Positions 7,943 through 19,175 of a stretch of 64,000 nt of DNA are shown here, one piece after another (position 1 is the first letter of the stretch; every line of letters starts with the position of its first letter). The notes beneath the pieces are model-generated. The model was not told the DNA's origin, did not search any database, and saw only the letters and a program-made list of their open reading frames with translations. Both the position numbers and the translations under genes were made by a program. The DNA is from Thermoflexales bacterium (GTDB lineage Bacteria; Chloroflexota; Anaerolineae; Fen-1058): positions 1 to 64,000 of the forward strand of contig JBGSPW010000064.1 of NCBI GenBank assembly GCA_041738395.1. The letters run 5' to 3'.

Positions 7943-8518
7943 ATGGCCGATCCATTCACCCACACCCGCCGCTCGATCCGGCGCTATCTCGATCGCCCTG
8001 TTCCCATGGAGTTGATCGATCAACTTCTGGAAGCGGCCACGCGTGCGCCCTCGGCTCATAATCTCCAACCGTGGCGCTTTGCGGTGATCTCCAGCCCGAT
8101 CGTTAAAGCGCAGCTCGCCGATCGAATGGGAGAACGGTTGAAAGCCGATCGGCAGCGCGAGGCCGATCGGGTAGCCGAGATCGATCGAGATGTGCAGCGC
8201 TCGCGGGAGCGCCTCAACGCCGCGCCGGTTGTGATCGTCGTGTGTCTGTCGTCGCTCGATCTGGATGAAGCGCGCGAACGAATCATGGCGATACAGAGTG
8301 TGGCCGCCTCGATCGAGAATCTGTTGTTGGCGGCGCACGAGGCAGGACTGGGCGCGTGCTGGATGGCTGCACCGCTGTACTGTCCCGACGTGGTGCGCGA
8401 CGTGTTGCAGTTGCCGGACGATTGGGAAGCACAGGCATTGATCACAGTTGGGTACCCAGCGGATAAGGTCAAGCCAAAAGCGCGCGTTGATTTTCGAGAG
8501 AAAACAATTTACCGGTAG
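7943..8518 (+). CDS. Nitroreductase-family protein. It resembles the FbiB C-terminal domain and is a possible dehydro-F420-0 reductase.
   Basis: N-terminal RRSIRRYLDRPVP...APSAHNLQPWRF matches the nitroreductase fold. The ATG at 7943 is chosen over the upstream GTG at 7838. The gene sits directly upstream of cofD and cofC. Confidence 0.6.
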   Translation: MADPFTHTRRSIRRYLDRPVPMELIDQLLEAATRAPSAHNLQPWRFAVISSPIVKAQLADRMGERLKADRQREADRVAEIDRDVQRSRERLNAAPVVIVVCLSSLDLDEARERIMAIQSVAASIENLLLAAHEAGLGACWMAAPLYCPDVVRDVLQLPDDWEAQALITVGYPADKVKPKARVDFREKTIYR

Positions 8519-14324: not shown

Positions 14325-15581
14325 ATGGCAAAGACAGTGGTCATAGTGGGCGCGCTTGACACCAAGGGCGAAGAGTTTGCCTATGTCAAAGCGCTGCTCA
14401 AGAAGAAACGCGTGAAAACGATCGTGGTTGATTTTGGCGTGCTGGGTGAACCGGCCTTTGAGCCGGACATCAGCCGCAGCACCGTGGCCGCGGCGGGCGG
14501 CGGTGATCTGGAACGCTTCCGCTTTGGCGAGCACAAAGACGAAGCGATGAAGGCGATGGCCACCGGACTCGCTGTCATCGTACGCCAGCTATACGACGCC
14601 GGAAAGCTCGACGGCATCCTGAGCATGGGCGGCAGCGGCGGCACCTCGATCGCGACGAACGCGATGCGCACCCTGCCGGTGGGTGTGCCCAAGGTGATGT
14701 TGTCCACAGTCGGCGGTGGTGATGTCAGCGCGTATGCCGGCCCGAAGGACATTACCTTCATGCCGTCGATTGTCGATGTGGCGGGCTTCAATCGCATCAG
14801 CCGTACCATTTACGCCAACGCCGCGGGAGCCATCGCGGGCATGGTGAACATGAGCGAGCCGAGAGCAACCGCCAAAGACACGGCGAGCATGGTGAGCTTT
14901 AGTGTAGCAGAAGCACCAGCCGACAAGCCGCTGATCGTCGCGTCGATGTTCGGCAATACGACCAAAGCCGTTGATCACGCCCGCGGCATCATGGAGCAAA
15001 ACGGTTACGAGGTGTTAGTCTTTCACGCCACCGGCACCGGCGGCAAGACGATGGAGAGCTTGATCGCCGATGGGTTGATCGCCGGTTCGCTGGACATCAC
15101 CACGACGGAACTCGCCGATGAAGTGTGCGGCGGCGTGTTCAGCGCGGGGCCCGATCGGTGTGGGGCGGCTTCCAAGGCGGGCATCCCCGCCGTGCTCGTG
15201 CCGGGCTGCGTCGATATGGCAAATTTCGGGGGCATCGATACCGTGCCGGAAAAATACAAAGGCCGCAATCTGTATCAGTGGAATCCCAACGTGACCTTGC
15301 TGCGCACCAACGTCGAAGAGAACGTGAAGATGGGTGAGCTGATCGCTGCGGCGGCCAATGCCGCCACTGCGCCCGTCGCCATCGTGCTGCCTCTCAAGGG
15401 CGTCTCCATGCTCGATAGTGAAGGTGGCAACTTCTGGGATCCAGAAGCCGATCGGGCGTGCTTTGATGCGATCAAGCAGAATCTCAAGCCCGGCATTCCG
15501 GTGATCGAAGTCGATCACAACATCAACGATCCCGAATTCTCCGGCAAAGTCGCCGAGACGCTGTTGGAGATGTTGAAATAA
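14325..15581 (+). CDS. Tm-1-like ATP-binding protein (UPF0261).
   Basis: The MAKTVVIVGALDTKGEEFAYVK N-terminus is characteristic of UPF0261. It is paired with the downstream PEP-hydrolase-like TIM barrel gene. Confidence 0.75.
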   Translation: MAKTVVIVGALDTKGEEFAYVKALLKKKRVKTIVVDFGVLGEPAFEPDISRSTVAAAGGGDLERFRFGEHKDEAMKAMATGLAVIVRQLYDAGKLDGILSMGGSGGTSIATNAMRTLPVGVPKVMLSTVGGGDVSAYAGPKDITFMPSIVDVAGFNRISRTIYANAAGAIAGMVNMSEPRATAKDTASMVSFSVAEAPADKPLIVASMFGNTTKAVDHARGIMEQNGYEVLVFHATGTGGKTMESLIADGLIAGSLDITTTELADEVCGGVFSAGPDRCGAASKAGIPAVLVPGCVDMANFGGIDTVPEKYKGRNLYQWNPNVTLLRTNVEENVKMGELIAAAANAATAPVAIVLPLKGVSMLDSEGGNFWDPEADRACFDAIKQNLKPGIPVIEVDHNINDPEFSGKVAETLLEMLK

Positions 15582-15592
15582 CATCATCGCGC

Positions 15593-15653
15593 AGAAACCG
15601 GGTTTCTACCGTTCGGATGGAATCAAGGTCTGGAATGTAGAAACCCGGTTTCT
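15593..15653. repeat. AGAAACCGGGTTTCT inverted-repeat hairpin element, locus A.
   Basis: Arms agaaaccgggtttct and agaaacccggtttct are exact reverse complements, separated by about 31 nt. Confidence 0.85.
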
Positions 15654-15663
15654 CATCTCACAC

Positions 15664-16509
15664 ATGGAGGACAGCATGGCAGTTTCACGCGCAGAAATCT
15701 TGAAACGGCTCAACGCGCAGGTGGCCGCAGGCAAACCCATCGTCGGCTGCGGCGCGGGCACCGGCATCTCAGCCAAGATGGCCGAGGCCGGTGGCTGCGA
15801 TCTGATCATCATCTACAACAGCGGACGCTATCGCATGGCGGGACGCGGCTCACTGGCCGGGCTGTTGTCTTACGGCGATGCGAACGGCATCGTCGTCGAG
15901 ATGGCCAGCGAAGTGCTGCCCATCGTGAAGAACGTGCCGGTGCTGGCAGGCGTCAACGGCACCGATCCGTTCCGCCTGATGCCCGTATTCTTGAAGCAGC
16001 TCAAAGACATGGGCTTCAGCGGCGTGCAGAACTTTCCCACCGTCGGACTGATCGATGGCAACTTCCGCGCCAACCTGGAAGCGACCGGCATGGGCTACGA
16101 TAAAGAAATCGAAACGATCCGTCTGGCCCATGAAATCGATCTATTCACGTCGCCCTACGTCTTCGATGTCGATCAAGCTAAAGCGATGGCACAGGCGGGC
16201 GCCGATCAGCTGGTGGCGCACGTCGGCCTGACGACGGCGGGAACGATCGGCGCGGGCGTGGCGTTGACGCTGGACGAAGCGATCGAGCGGGTGCTGCAGA
16301 TCGCCGCAGCGGGTCGCGCGGTGCGCAAAGACATTCTCGTCATCTGTCACGGCGGCCCCTTCGACGAGCCGGATCAGGTCGGTAAAGCGCTGCTGCGTAT
16401 GCCGGGCATCAGCGGCTTCTTCGGCGCATCGAGTATCGAACGGCTGCCGACCGAGCGCGGCATTCGCGGACAGGTGCAGGAGTTTAAGGGGTTGAAACTG
16501 GCGAAGTAA
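15664..16509 (+). CDS. Phosphoenolpyruvate hydrolase-like TIM-barrel protein, the partner of Tm-1-like/UPF0261.
   Basis: 281 aa. Gene-pair context with UPF0261. The start could instead be the ATG at 15676. Confidence 0.6.
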   Translation: MEDSMAVSRAEILKRLNAQVAAGKPIVGCGAGTGISAKMAEAGGCDLIIIYNSGRYRMAGRGSLAGLLSYGDANGIVVEMASEVLPIVKNVPVLAGVNGTDPFRLMPVFLKQLKDMGFSGVQNFPTVGLIDGNFRANLEATGMGYDKEIETIRLAHEIDLFTSPYVFDVDQAKAMAQAGADQLVAHVGLTTAGTIGAGVALTLDEAIERVLQIAAAGRAVRKDILVICHGGPFDEPDQVGKALLRMPGISGFFGASSIERLPTERGIRGQVQEFKGLKLAK

Positions 16510-16539
16510 GCGACTGAGGGAATAGCGAAATTTGACATT

Positions 16540-16707
16540 ACCCCAGCCGCATGCTATAGTTCGGCGCGTAGGAAGTGGTAAGAACCTGAAGTGGTTGTAG
16601 CAGTTAAGATCCGCTCGGGCTTACGGGAACCTGAAGCGGATTTTTGTTACACCTCACCGGGCCTTACGGCAACCTAACATTTCAATCATTCTGAAGGAGC
16701 AGCAACC
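16540..16707 (+). promoter_or_regulatory. Long, structured 5' leader of the cold-shock gene, likely a cspA-type thermoregulatory UTR.
   Basis: About 170 nt of non-coding sequence upstream of csp. Direct repeats cctgaagtgg and cctgaagcgg are present. Confidence 0.4.
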
Positions 16708-16917
16708 GTGAGCGACAAGGTAACCGGAACCGTGAAGTGGTTCAACAATGCGAAGGGGTATGGCTTTATTTCGCAGGAGACCGGCGAGGACGTGTTCGTG
16801 CACCACTCGGCCATCGAGATGACCGGCTATCGCACGCTGAACGAAGGCCAGCGCGTGCAGTTTTCAGTTGAGCACGGCCCCAAGGGCCTGCAGGCCAAGG
16901 ACGTTAGTCCCATTTAA
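16708..16917 (+). CDS. cspA: Cold-shock protein (CspA family).
   Basis: [15 protein letters not shown]...DVFVHHSAI carries the RNP1 and RNP2 motifs. GTG start with an AAGGAG RBS. Confidence 0.95.
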
Positions 16918-17046
16918 TCCCGCAGCTGACAACTGAATAGCAGCGCCGCCCTCTAAGGGGCGGCGTTTTTGTTTCCCGCGAGTTGTTGTACAATCGCGCC
17001 CGTTATCTTACGGGAAGAATGAAAGCACTTAATTTCAAATCAACCA

Positions 17047-17108
17047 AGAAACCGGGTTTCTCCATTTTCAGAGGAATGGAACGCTTAGCGTGGAGAAACC
17101 CGGTTTCT
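17047..17108. repeat. AGAAACCGGGTTTCT inverted-repeat hairpin element, locus B.
   Basis: Same arms as locus A with a roughly 32-nt loop. It lies upstream of the LCP gene. Confidence 0.85.
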
Positions 17109-17146
17109 GGTCGGCGCTTTCCCGCTAACGCGGAAGAGCTGGAAGA

Positions 17147-18316
17147 ATGAAGACACTGATGTCAAAAAACGATTCAATCTGGAGTTCAAAGTCGCCAGCC
17201 GCGCGCTGGCAATCGCAAGAGACGCAGCCGTCGCCACGCCGGCGCGCGCAGGCAATCACCCGATCGAGCCGCCGCAAGCCGATCGGATTGTATGTGCTGA
17301 CCGGCCTGCTCACCGTGATCGTGTTCATGTGCGTCGGCACGAGCCTGGTACTCGCTGCCATCGGGCCTACCACGCTGCTGGCGCTGCGCGATCGCTGGTT
17401 GGGACGCAATGTCGAAGAAACGATCAGCACGATTGGGCAAGTTGCCAAAGTGATCGTGACCAACGACAGCGATGTCTGGCCCGCGCTGGATAATGGCCGC
17501 GTCACCGTGCTGCTGCTGGGCGTCGATTCGCGCGGTACGCTGCGCGAGGGCGGACTCAATACCGATGTGCTGACACTCGTCACGATCGATCCGATCAGCA
17601 AAACAGCGGCGCTGTTGTCCATTCCGCGCGATCTGTACGTGCCGCTGCCGGGCACAAACGTTCAGAGTCGCATCAATGCCGCCTATGCCTGGGGTGAAGT
17701 CAACCAGCTGCCCGGCGGCGGATCGGCATATGTGGAGAAGACCATCACGGACAACTTCGGTGTGCCAGTGCAGCGCTATGCCATCATCGACTTTAACGGC
17801 TTCCAGAAAATCGTCGATGCGGTCGGCGGAGTGGATATTGATGTGCCGCAGGCGATCGTCGATTACGAATATCCCACGCCCGATTATGGCACCGAAGTGT
17901 TGCAGATTCCGGCAGGGCGCATTCACATGGACGGCGATCTGAGCCTGAAGTACGTGCGCACCCGGCACGGCGACAGCGATTTTGGCCGCTTGCAGCGTCA
18001 ACAGCAGGTGATGCTGGCCATTCGCGATAAAGCGTTGAGTATTGGCTCAATCGATAAGGTGCCGGAAGTTTTGAATGCCGTGGGCGATTCACTCGCCACC
18101 GATCTCACCTTGCCGGAGATTCTGTCGCTGGCGAAGAAGTGGGGGCAGATTCCGCGCGAGAATATTCGCACCTATCGCATCGACGAGACGATGATTCAGC
18201 CGTACATCACACCGCAGGGCGGACAGGTGCTGCAGCCCGATTGGGATAAGATCGCCGAAGTCGTGGCGCAGTTCCTGGGAGAAACGCCGGTCACGCCAGT
18301 GGCCGCGCAACAGTGA
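17147..18316 (+). CDS. LytR-CpsA-Psr (LCP) family cell-envelope phosphotransferase.
   Basis: An N-terminal TM segment followed by the LCP core (LLGVDSRG...NTDVLTLVTIDP...SIPRDLYVPLPG...RINAAYAWGE). Confidence 0.8.
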   Translation: MKTLMSKNDSIWSSKSPAARWQSQETQPSPRRRAQAITRSSRRKPIGLYVLTGLLTVIVFMCVGTSLVLAAIGPTTLLALRDRWLGRNVEETISTIGQVAKVIVTNDSDVWPALDNGRVTVLLLGVDSRGTLREGGLNTDVLTLVTIDPISKTAALLSIPRDLYVPLPGTNVQSRINAAYAWGEVNQLPGGGSAYVEKTITDNFGVPVQRYAIIDFNGFQKIVDAVGGVDIDVPQAIVDYEYPTPDYGTEVLQIPAGRIHMDGDLSLKYVRTRHGDSDFGRLQRQQQVMLAIRDKALSIGSIDKVPEVLNAVGDSLATDLTLPEILSLAKKWGQIPRENIRTYRIDETMIQPYITPQGGQVLQPDWDKIAEVVAQFLGETPVTPVAAQQ

Positions 18317-18323
18317 TCGAGAG

Positions 18324-18385
18324 AAGAAACCGGGGGGCTGCCATTTGAACGGCATGACGAGCTGGAAAGGTGAAACCCGGTTTCT
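18324..18385. repeat. AGAAACCGGGTTTCT inverted-repeat hairpin element, locus C, with a degenerate left arm.
   Basis: agaaaccggggggct...tgaaacccggtttct. It lies between convergent genes. Confidence 0.7.
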
Positions 18386-18388
18386 CCA

Positions 18389-18880
18389 TCAACGATAGAA
18401 GTTAATCCACTCGATGGTAAACTTGCTCTCCTCGCTCTGCATGAAAGCTGCCGGGGCCTCGAGGTCAAAGTAGCCGGAGTTAGACGTCACATTCATCCAG
18501 TGAGCATCACCAGGGCTGAGCGCGCTGATCTGGCCCTCTTGTACCAACATTTCGCGCGTTTGAGTAGAAACCGACACCTCCACGGTTTGTGCGCCATGCT
18601 TGAATTTGAAACTCTCCAGGCCTTTGACATGCAGCCGCATCACAATCTTGGGCGGCCACTGACCAGAGGCTTTCGCAATCATTACACTGCCGATGCCGGT
18701 CGGGCTGGTGATATCGATCAGGACCATCTCATTCGAGGTCGTGAAGACAATCCTAGGATCGCCTTTCAGCGGCGTGTAACGAAACGTCGGTCGATCGATC
18801 GGGCGCGCGGGCGCGGCACAGGCCGCCAGGCTCAACAGCACAGCGCCGGACAGTAAAGCAAGCAGATAACGTCGGAACAT
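18389..18880 (-). CDS. Lipoprotein of unknown function.
   Basis: Signal peptide with a lipobox (LLSLAAC). Confidence 0.5.
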   Translation of the reverse strand: MFRRYLLALLSGAVLLSLAACAAPARPIDRPTFRYTPLKGDPRIVFTTSNEMVLIDITSPTGIGSVMIAKASGQWPPKIVMRLHVKGLESFKFKHGAQTVEVSVSTQTREMLVQEGQISALSPGDAHWMNVTSNSGYFDLEAPAAFMQSEESKFTIEWINFYR

Positions 18881-18961
18881 TTATACTGTGCTCCTAACAG
18901 GATGTGTGGTCGATTATACCCAGACAGCCAAACACCGCAATGGGTCCTTGTTCAGGCTGCG

Positions 18962-19175
18962 GACTAGTCTGAAAATGCTCACAGCCCTCGTTCCCGAGGG
19001 CGTTCCCCGCAGGCGGGGCGCGAGCGCGGAGCGTTTTCAGGCTTTGTGCTGAATGCCGTTCATGGGGTCTGATCTGAAAATGCTCACAGCCCTCGTCCCC
19101 GAGGGCGTTTCCCGCAGACGGGGCGCGAGCGCGGAGTGTTGTTAGGGGCGGGGATGAACGCCGTTCAGGCTAACT
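18962..19175. repeat. Two tandem copies of a roughly 106-nt structured, hairpin-rich element.
   Basis: ctgaaaatgctcacagccctcgttcccgagggcgttccccgcaggcggggcgcgagcgcggagcgttttcag repeats at about 92% identity. Each copy is closed by ctgaaaa/ttttcag and contains gccctcg...cgagggc and ccccgc..gcgggg stems. Confidence 0.85.

Follow-up and report, generated by a model that had tools for sequence, protein, structure and literature searches.

What are the hairpin-forming repeats that lie in three neighboring intergenic gaps of a Thermoflexales genome (Chloroflexota; assembly GCA_041738395.1, contig JBGSPW010000064.1, positions 1 to 64,000 of the forward strand), and how did they get there? The whole 64-kb stretch is referred to below as the window. 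An earlier note had described three loci, A, B and C, each as a pair of inverted 15-mers around a GGAATGG-like loop, and had offered terminators, sites of a GAAACC-recognizing regulator or small REP/MITE-like transposable remnants as explanations. We consider it likely that A, B and C are doublets of repetitive extragenic palindromic (REP) units, or REPINs, that is, non-autonomous hairpin mobile DNA spread by a RAYT. RAYTs are REP-associated tyrosine transposases, HUH/Y1 enzymes that act on single-stranded DNA. Direct observation supports a repeat family that is built of doublets, lies outside genes and is linked to RAYT genes, and in which repeat and RAYT co-vary; it also supports an insertion polymorphism at B and the lack of target-site duplications. 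Read in this way, the three elements are:

15593-15653, no strand assigned: REP doublet (REPIN) A, with arms at 15593-15607 (center base G) and 15639-15653 (center base C)

17047-17108, no strand assigned: REP doublet (REPIN) B, with arms at 17047-17061 and 17094-17108

18325-18385, no strand assigned: decayed REP doublet C, with arms at 18325-18339 and 18371-18385

Loci A and B are indeed pairs of exactly reverse-complementary 15-mers. At A, AGAAACCGGGTTTCT (15593-15607) and AGAAACCCGGTTTCT (15639-15653) are separated by 31 nt and the perfect stem extends to 17 bp (15593-15609 with 15637-15653), while at B the same AGAAACCGGGTTTCT/AGAAACCCGGTTTCT pair stands 32 nt apart and the perfect stem reaches 18 bp. 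Folded as + strand RNA, A reaches -35.6 kcal/mol (z = -6.05) and B -38.7 kcal/mol (z = -6.12), and on the - strand both likewise fold far better than shuffled controls. Locus C had been described in the same terms, starting at 18324, and this has to be corrected: its left arm starts at 18325 and carries 3 mismatches (AGAAACCGGGGGGCT, listed also as AGAAACCGGGgggCT), its right arm carries 1 (TGAAACCCGGTTTCT, listed also as tGAAACCCGGTTTCT), only about 10 bp are paired and the + strand z score is -1.88. C is a decayed copy of the A/B-type doublet. With up to 2 mismatches allowed, the 15-mer has 10 matches in the window (5 sites on both strands) against 0.07 expected, far above chance; A, B and C all fall inside 2.8 kb, and no further credible copy is present in the 64 kb.

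A point overlooked by the earlier note is that there is a dyad inside every 15-mer: each arm is itself a palindrome, GAAACC-S-GGTTTC, or AGAAACC-S-GGTTTCT with its ends. Because the arms are self-palindromic, an inverted pair can be told from a direct one by the center base alone, G in the left arm and C in the right. The center-to-center spacing of the window pairs is 46-47 bp and their loops are 27-35 nt long. The GGAATGG-like loop motif is weak: a short TGGAA occurs in the loops of A, B and C and in some other Chloroflexota copies (L030, L074 and site C of L126); the loops are otherwise unrelated in sequence, and TGGAA is not present in cyanobacterial loops. The center of the 15-mer, CCSGG (containing CCGG; for example window 15598-15602), has the form of a type II restriction/methylation site. 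Rfam gave no match to the elements at the gathering score, and none over 15500-18500 at E ≤1.

The 15-mer doublet belongs to a large family. A scan that covered a single genome of each species, for pairs of GAAACCSGGTTTC units with 20-50 nt between them, located it in at least 117 stretches of public genomes; that only three copies exist is thus true of the 64-kb window and false for the family. Among the matches listed, about 100 are cyanobacterial, mostly from filamentous genera (Microcoleus, Oscillatoria, Lyngbya, Calothrix and others), nine are Chloroflexota stretches (Anaerolineae, Thermoflexales, Ardenticatenaceae, Chloroflexaceae), and Gemmataceae and Obscuribacterales contribute single stretches; Lyngbya CCY1209, Calothrix PCC 7716 and Oscillatoria HE19RPO have several loci per genome. 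The family unit is the 15-mer A-GAAACC-S-GGTTTC-T (in the doublet also written AGAAACCSGGTTTCT), and two units with complementary center bases, 31-35 nt apart, pair into a 15-bp stem. We compared the 111 unique G...C doublets among these matches. Their center bases are G then C, and the arms lie 45-54 nt apart from start to start, with a mode of 50 (45-47 nt in the window and other Chloroflexota copies). The flanking A at -1 is kept in 108/111 and the T at +1 in 107/111, so that conservation ends exactly at the limits of the 15-mer. At positions -2 and -3 no base is conserved (A35/C34/G17/T25 and A26/C41/G10/T34), and a 5' GTAG (or CGTC) tag is absent, which makes these REPs of an untagged type. 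No systematic pairing extends beyond the 15-mers in the 111 doublets (0.19 just outside the arms, 0.36-0.46 just inside), which makes the longer stems of A (17 bp) and B (18 bp) a local feature. Target-site duplications, which the earlier note had proposed to look for around each copy, were found in none of the 111 copies for k = 2-8 at offsets 0-2.

The doublets are strongly extragenic: only 23/141 fall within any open reading frame (ORF) of at least 120 aa, compared with 73% of random positions. In some genomes the units are arrayed in tandem, up to 10 or more of them, with a period of 83-87 nt. A reading of these arrays as CRISPR-like was discarded in view of this period and of "spacers" that recur within an array. 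Neither the 13-mer nor the 15-mer was found verbatim in the literature searched, a search that did not extend to overlap with the SDR (small dispersed repeat) families of Nostoc (Elhai et al., 2008). We also observed variants of the unit. A Chloroflexaceae metagenome-assembled genome (MAG), H28_384, carries a GC-rich variant, GGGGAAACCGGGTTTCCCC, without the A/T ends (L068:4228-4640 and L095:302-356); in L068 it forms same-center (G...G) units about 61-68 nt apart, with one gap of 142 nt, rather than inverted doublets, and in L095 there is one G...C inverted pair. A Gemmataceae MAG (L065:6085-6165) has four units arranged as two nested tight doublets directly 3' of a tRNA-like sequence.

The repeat is closely tied to RAYT genes. 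Oscillatoria sp. HE19RPO (L072) encodes a 186-aa ORF between two tandem arrays of the element. Its product matches Pfam Y1_Tnp at 8.9e-12 and passes the NCBIfam equivalog REP_Tyr_transpos (81.6 bits, cut-off 80). The HUH motif is NHYH and the class-2 tyrosine motif Y-x3-NP is YIHLNP, both invariant in 32 homologues; Y---NP is the published criterion for class-2 Y1 transposases (PMC6006769). The best solved-structure match is the E. coli TnpA_REP (4ER8), although this match is weak (E = 0.0011). Homologues number in the thousands. We examined four named ones, from Kamptonema animale, Nostoc sp. PCC 7524, Capilliphycus salinus and Calothrix parasitica, and each of these genes has the 15-mer or a variant with 1 mismatch on either side, no more than about 100 nt away; the repeats are paired there in wide doublets or in tight ones with 3 nt between the arms. 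All six of the examined RAYT loci carrying the 15-mer (L072, L118, L120, L121, L122 and L127) are flanked on both sides at no more than about 100 nt. Repeats placed around a RAYT gene are the canonical REP-RAYT arrangement (PMC3116915, PMC5581495, PMC3733652).

Repeat and transposase also vary together. When metagenomes were scanned with an alignment (A1) of the RAYTs above, 80 further loci were obtained. Closest is L127, which has the exact 15-mer on its flanks; L128, L132 and L137 (50-58% identity, GC 57-64%) carry the center-variant AGAAACCWGGTTTCT; and RAYT relatives at 41-63% identity have 15+3+15-nt hairpins of other sequence (AGAAACCAGGTTTCT, AGAAGCTAACCTTCT, AGACCTCCGAGGTCT, AGGTGCGACGCACCT and others). 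It is this change of hairpin sequence with RAYT distance that points to co-variation. Among 31 hairpins compared, 13 of the 15 stem positions vary on both sides, the end pairs A1-T33 and T15-A19 being fixed. In variant pairs the two arms still match each other, but the dyad inside each of them is weakened, as in AGAAACCAGGTTTTT with AAAAACCTGGTTTCT and AAAAACCCGGTTTCT with AGAAACCGGGTTTTT. The first of these variants flanks, on both sides, a RAYT that NCBI names as Chloroflexi/Anaerolineaceae (L207, P0268), in the form AGAAACCAGGTTTTT-cta-AAAAACCTGGTTTCT. At this locus (L207:533-8573) the RAYT and its doublets lie between a PLD/SNF2-helicase gene and an MmeI-type methyltransferase/Eco57I gene, neighbors that look like a defense-type pair, and extra doublets fall within the called helicase gene (2447-2480) and the called methyltransferase gene (8060-8093).

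The insertion history of the window copies can be followed through the genes that surround them:

14325-16509, + strand: UPF0261 gene (14325-15581) and PEP_hydrolase-like gene (15664/15676-16509), the gap between them holding A

16708-18316, + strand: csp gene (16708-16917) and LytR_cpsA_psr (LCP) gene (17147-18316), flanking B and C

A begins 11 nt past the UPF0261 stop codon (15581) and ends 22 nt ahead of the likely PEP_hydrolase-like start (ATG 15676; GGAGGA at 15666-15671). B stands 3' of the csp terminator (16942-16967) and 38 nt 5' of the LCP ORF start (17147). C is found between the convergent stops of the LCP gene (18316, +) and of a 163-aa gene (18389, -). All three are intergenic, A and B between + strand genes and C between convergent genes, in agreement with the gene context first proposed.

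Four relatives (L123-L126) keep the gene order YhhN-YjbQ-UPF0261-PEP_hydrolase-(csp)-LCP-164 aa; the contig of L123 is short, starting inside UPF0261 and covering the order only from there onward. L124-L126 keep the UPF0261/PEP_hydrolase-like pair in synteny, and L123 shows the same gap. Protein identities place the window with L123 and L124, and L125 with L126.

Site B is filled in the window only. It is empty in all four syntenic relatives (L123, L124, L125 and L126), which indicates an insertion in the window:

17021-17147, no strand assigned: insertion at B, 127-128 nt that are absent from the closest relatives L123 and L124 in the alignment

The inserted DNA consists of 26 nt, REPIN B (62 nt) and 39 nt. 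An imperfect 17-nt direct repeat, 15/17 identical, brackets it (GGAAGAATGAAAGCACT at 17013-17029 and GGAAGAATGAAGACACT at 17141-17157), so that the exact boundaries are ambiguous. Since this repeat includes a ribosome-binding-like GGAAGA and an ATG, the LCP gene retains a start region after the insertion.

Site A of L126 (8904-8964) holds an orthologous doublet with the same flanks as in the window. The central 11 nt of the two loops are inverted relative to each other (0/11 matches direct, 11/11 as reverse complement), whereas the outer loop matches directly at 16/20 positions. This central inversion suggests template switching or recombination at a DNA hairpin, and we count it in favor of a hairpin formed in vivo. 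L126 also has an orthologous doublet at site C, with a homologous loop (GCATGACG.GCTGGAAAGG) and with decay on the arm opposite to that of the window copy. The other relatives carry different hairpins at these positions. Site A is occupied in L125 by a tight AGACCTCSGAGGTCT-type doublet, of the kind found around the RAYT of metagenomic locus L134, in L124 by a wide AGACCTGWCAGGTCT doublet and in L123 by other hairpins. Site C in L123, L124 and L125 is occupied by AACCTCCCGGAGGCT-type doublets, the type that flanks the RAYT of metagenomic locus L149. The slot occupants are of the GAAACC, AGACCTC or AGACCTG type at site A and of the GAAACC or AACCTCCCGGAGGCT type at site C, and both site C alleles are found in both sub-clades. 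The doublets of other types lie as follows:

L125:8653-8685, L125:11161-11193, L125:14511-14543, L124:8985-9048 and L123:3491-3527: other REP-type doublets of the relatives, at the intergenic positions that hold the GAAACC type in the window

L124 also encodes a Y1_Tnp protein, an IS200-type TnpA of 145 aa with the motifs YDLKYHLVW, HIHLL and YIESQ, inserted 5' of the syntenic block (L124:5458-5895, - strand) and absent from the window. As a candidate for a related transposase it was set aside, being a classic IS200-type TnpA without a flanking GAAACC repeat.

These observations are consistent with the following mechanism. Where the DNA becomes single-stranded, a doublet would fold into a hairpin that a cognate RAYT may bind, cutting and rejoining the single strand through Y1/HUH chemistry and thereby excising or inserting the doublet without a target-site duplication. 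The lack of such duplications across the family fits Y1 transposition, because Y1/HUH chemistry leaves none. Both the catalysis by the RAYT and the single-stranded intermediate are proposed here by analogy with IS200/IS605 TnpA and E. coli TnpA_REP, and we infer that the cognate RAYT is encoded elsewhere in the source genome. Copy B is a lineage-specific insertion in the leader of the LCP gene, and copies A and C are older, common to the window and one relative (L126), with C decaying. Effects on RNA are presumed as well: the inserted doublets would be transcribed as strong hairpins, intercistronic for A, in a 5' leader for B and at convergent 3' ends for C, and their secondary role would probably be that of an exonuclease barrier or a partial terminator, as with E. 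coli REPs. The latter stabilize upstream mRNA or attenuate transcription.

Several findings weigh against the reading of A, B and C as RAYT-mobilized REP doublets. A search by tblastn and with a hidden Markov model of 120 sequences detected no RAYT in the 64-kb window, nor in the 116 other repeat loci. There are only three copies in 64 kb, all within 2.8 kb of each other, and a high genomic copy number is not supported. The insertion at B is not a clean 62 nt: the extra 26 and 39 nt and the imperfect 17-nt direct repeat are not predicted by simple Y1 transposition. Unlike classic REPs of the E. coli type, the elements have no 5' GTAG tag. The variant that flanks the Chloroflexi RAYT of L207 differs from the window 15-mer at 2/15 positions, and the percentage of paired positions in the 31 hairpins is high partly through how the hairpins were chosen.

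The alternative with most in its favor is that the hairpins are RNA elements selected by the host, such as intrinsic or bidirectional terminators or 3'-end stabilizers, and that their repeat nature is incidental; we regard it as improbable. It would account for the presence of some strong hairpin at sites A and C in every relative, for the site C hairpins of L123-L125, which are GC-rich and followed by a T-run between convergent genes, and for the very stable folding of the window elements on both strands. Yet the sequences that follow the three window stems (CATCTCAC, GGTCGGCG and CCATCAAC) contain no T-run, and with loops of 27-35 nt the elements do not have the form of intrinsic terminators. 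A terminator scan called only the csp terminator at 16942-16967; the scan is blind to loops longer than 8 nt, and its silence on A, B and C says little. B itself comes after that terminator and falls within a 5' leader, and a stop of transcription there would shut off the LCP gene. What the relatives carry are again REP-type doublets, belonging to kinds seen on the flanks of other RAYTs, and around transposase genes the window 15-mer is repeated in tandem arrays. A function in RNA is thus best seen as a possible secondary role of REP doublets rather than as an alternative origin. Such a role at RNA 3' ends, by protection or attenuation, is plausible by analogy with E. coli, given the positions of the elements, the constant presence of a hairpin at A and C among the relatives and the T-run that follows the site C hairpin in three of them.

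We consider it very unlikely that the 15-mers are operators of a dimeric transcription factor recognizing GAAACC-N-GGTTTC, two per promoter; binding sites of a GAAACC-recognizing regulator, as offered by the earlier note, are not supported as a regulon. Every 15-mer is a perfect dyad, the window pairs are spaced 46-47 bp from center to center, and A and B lie upstream of genes, all of which an operator would explain. C, however, sits between convergent 3' ends, and A within an operon only 11 nt past a stop codon. The sites are present or absent among close relatives with the same genes, and the 15-mer recurs in tandem arrays of up to 10 or more units and at insertion-polymorphic intergenic sites next to unrelated genes in several phyla. 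An operator would also leave unexplained why the centers are consistently complementary, G then C, and why variants keep the pairing between arms and lose the dyad within them. The protein that recognizes the 15-mer is most plausibly the transposase.

Least tenable is an origin as miniature inverted-repeat transposable elements (MITEs) of a DDE-type insertion sequence, a view that fits dispersed, extragenic and insertion-polymorphic elements of about 60 nt with 15-bp terminal inverted repeats (TIRs) but is rejected because no 2-8 nt target-site duplication was present at any offset tried in the 111 copies, the more so as the conserved unit ends exactly with the 15-mer and the only gene consistently bracketed encodes a Y1/HUH RAYT, not a DDE transposase. 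Of the original REP/MITE-like suggestion, the part that holds is therefore a transposable REP doublet tied to RAYT genes.

REPs and REPINs with their RAYTs are a known kind of element, of which those in the window are a further example. The closest parallel is the REPIN-RAYT system of Pseudomonas fluorescens SBW25 and other Proteobacteria (PMC3116915, PMC5581495), in which two inverted palindromic units and a spacer form a long hairpin; there too the elements are extragenic, dispersed and sometimes clustered in tandem, the RAYT gene is flanked by its own repeats, and repeat and RAYT co-vary between lineages. In contrast to that system, the unit described here is only 15 nt long and a perfect dyad without a GTAG tag, the identical 15-mer is found in Cyanobacteria and Chloroflexota, and the window has no RAYT. 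The E. coli REP/BIME (bacterial interspersed mosaic element) repeats and TnpA_REP (4ER8; PMC6006769) likewise combine a Y1/HUH enzyme bearing Y-x3-NP with extragenic hairpin repeats located in intercistronic gaps and at 3' ends. The sequence similarity to 4ER8 is weak, as given above, and E. coli REPs are imperfect palindromes of 20-40 nt that need a 5' GTAG guide, unlike the present units, whose flanks are unconserved beyond A...T.

The family is also reminiscent of the TIRYT or "TIRtron" repeats, which include self-complementary TIRs in Stenotrophomonas maltophilia (PMC3733652), and of TnpA_Y1 subclass 2.1 (PMC6006769): these are RAYT-like genes with untagged inverted repeats, some self-complementary, in close dimers or clusters. 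Judged on motifs only, our RAYTs (NHYH, WE, YIHLNP) resemble subclass 2.1 (NH[YF]H, W[EQ], Y[IV]HLNP). Subclass 2.1 proteins, however, are described as longer, with a median of 238 aa, a C-terminal helix-turn-helix (HTH) domain and no REP-like sequences nearby (PMC6006769), whereas the RAYTs described here are about 186-190 aa long and clearly flanked by hairpin repeats; nor is the published GGGGWSAS motif part of the repeat. Filamentous cyanobacteria are further known to carry short dispersed palindromes, the GTAG-12, GTAG-15 and GTAG-16 REPs (PMC3733652), which differ from the present family in being GTAG-tagged. What sets the family apart from described cases is its compact 15-nt perfect dyad without GTAG, its A-N13-T doublet grammar and a unit that is identical in Cyanobacteria and Chloroflexota.

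Two readings go beyond an ordinary REP family, and we put them forward tentatively, as possible rather than probable. The first is that a RAYT clade of about 186-190 aa with the motifs NHYH/YIHLNP, found in Cyanobacteria, Chloroflexota and further metagenomic contigs, may use an undescribed repeat grammar, in which A-N13-T 15-mers form inverted doublets with loops of 3 nt or about 33 nt; the identity of the 15-mer across phyla would imply horizontal spread of the repeat-transposase pair. The second concerns the different REP families that occupy the same intergenic slots in sister Thermoflexales-like lineages. It suggests either that insertion is aimed at pre-existing REP or terminator hairpins, one family replacing another, or that a hairpin is required by the host at these positions, with whichever REP is active being recruited. 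To us, the most interesting point is that REP families seem to replace one another at intergenic slots that stay fixed.

To our knowledge, work on REPIN-RAYT systems has dealt almost entirely with Proteobacteria, in which these systems have been argued to be long-lived, vertically inherited partners of their hosts. The present family extends their range to Chloroflexota and filamentous cyanobacteria with an unusually compact, symmetric 15-nt unit, and its identity across phyla bears on whether such systems move horizontally. The syntenic relatives with different REPs at the same positions offer a natural series for the question of hairpin targeting. For annotation, such hairpins should be labeled as REP-type repeats and not as regulator sites or terminators.

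Some further features of the region are of note. The LCP-family protein has a best homologue at 88% identity and matches named "Thermoflexales bacterium" or "Anaerolineae bacterium", which assigns the window to an uncultured lineage of Thermoflexales/Anaerolineae type. At 16532-16560 there is a strong sigma-70-like promoter (TTGACA-17-TATAGT). Apart from two tRNAs, the only other Rfam match is to the cspA thermoregulator and is sub-threshold, covering the csp leader and coding region at 16589-16971 (48.2 bits against a gathering score of 78, E = 1.5e-10). Finally, between the 163-aa gene (-) and a zinc-ribbon gene at 19236 (+), a 105-nt unit is present twice in tandem (18958-19167), the two copies being 84% identical and each containing GC-rich inverted repeats (CCCTCGTTCCCGAGGG and CCCCGCAGGCGGGG).

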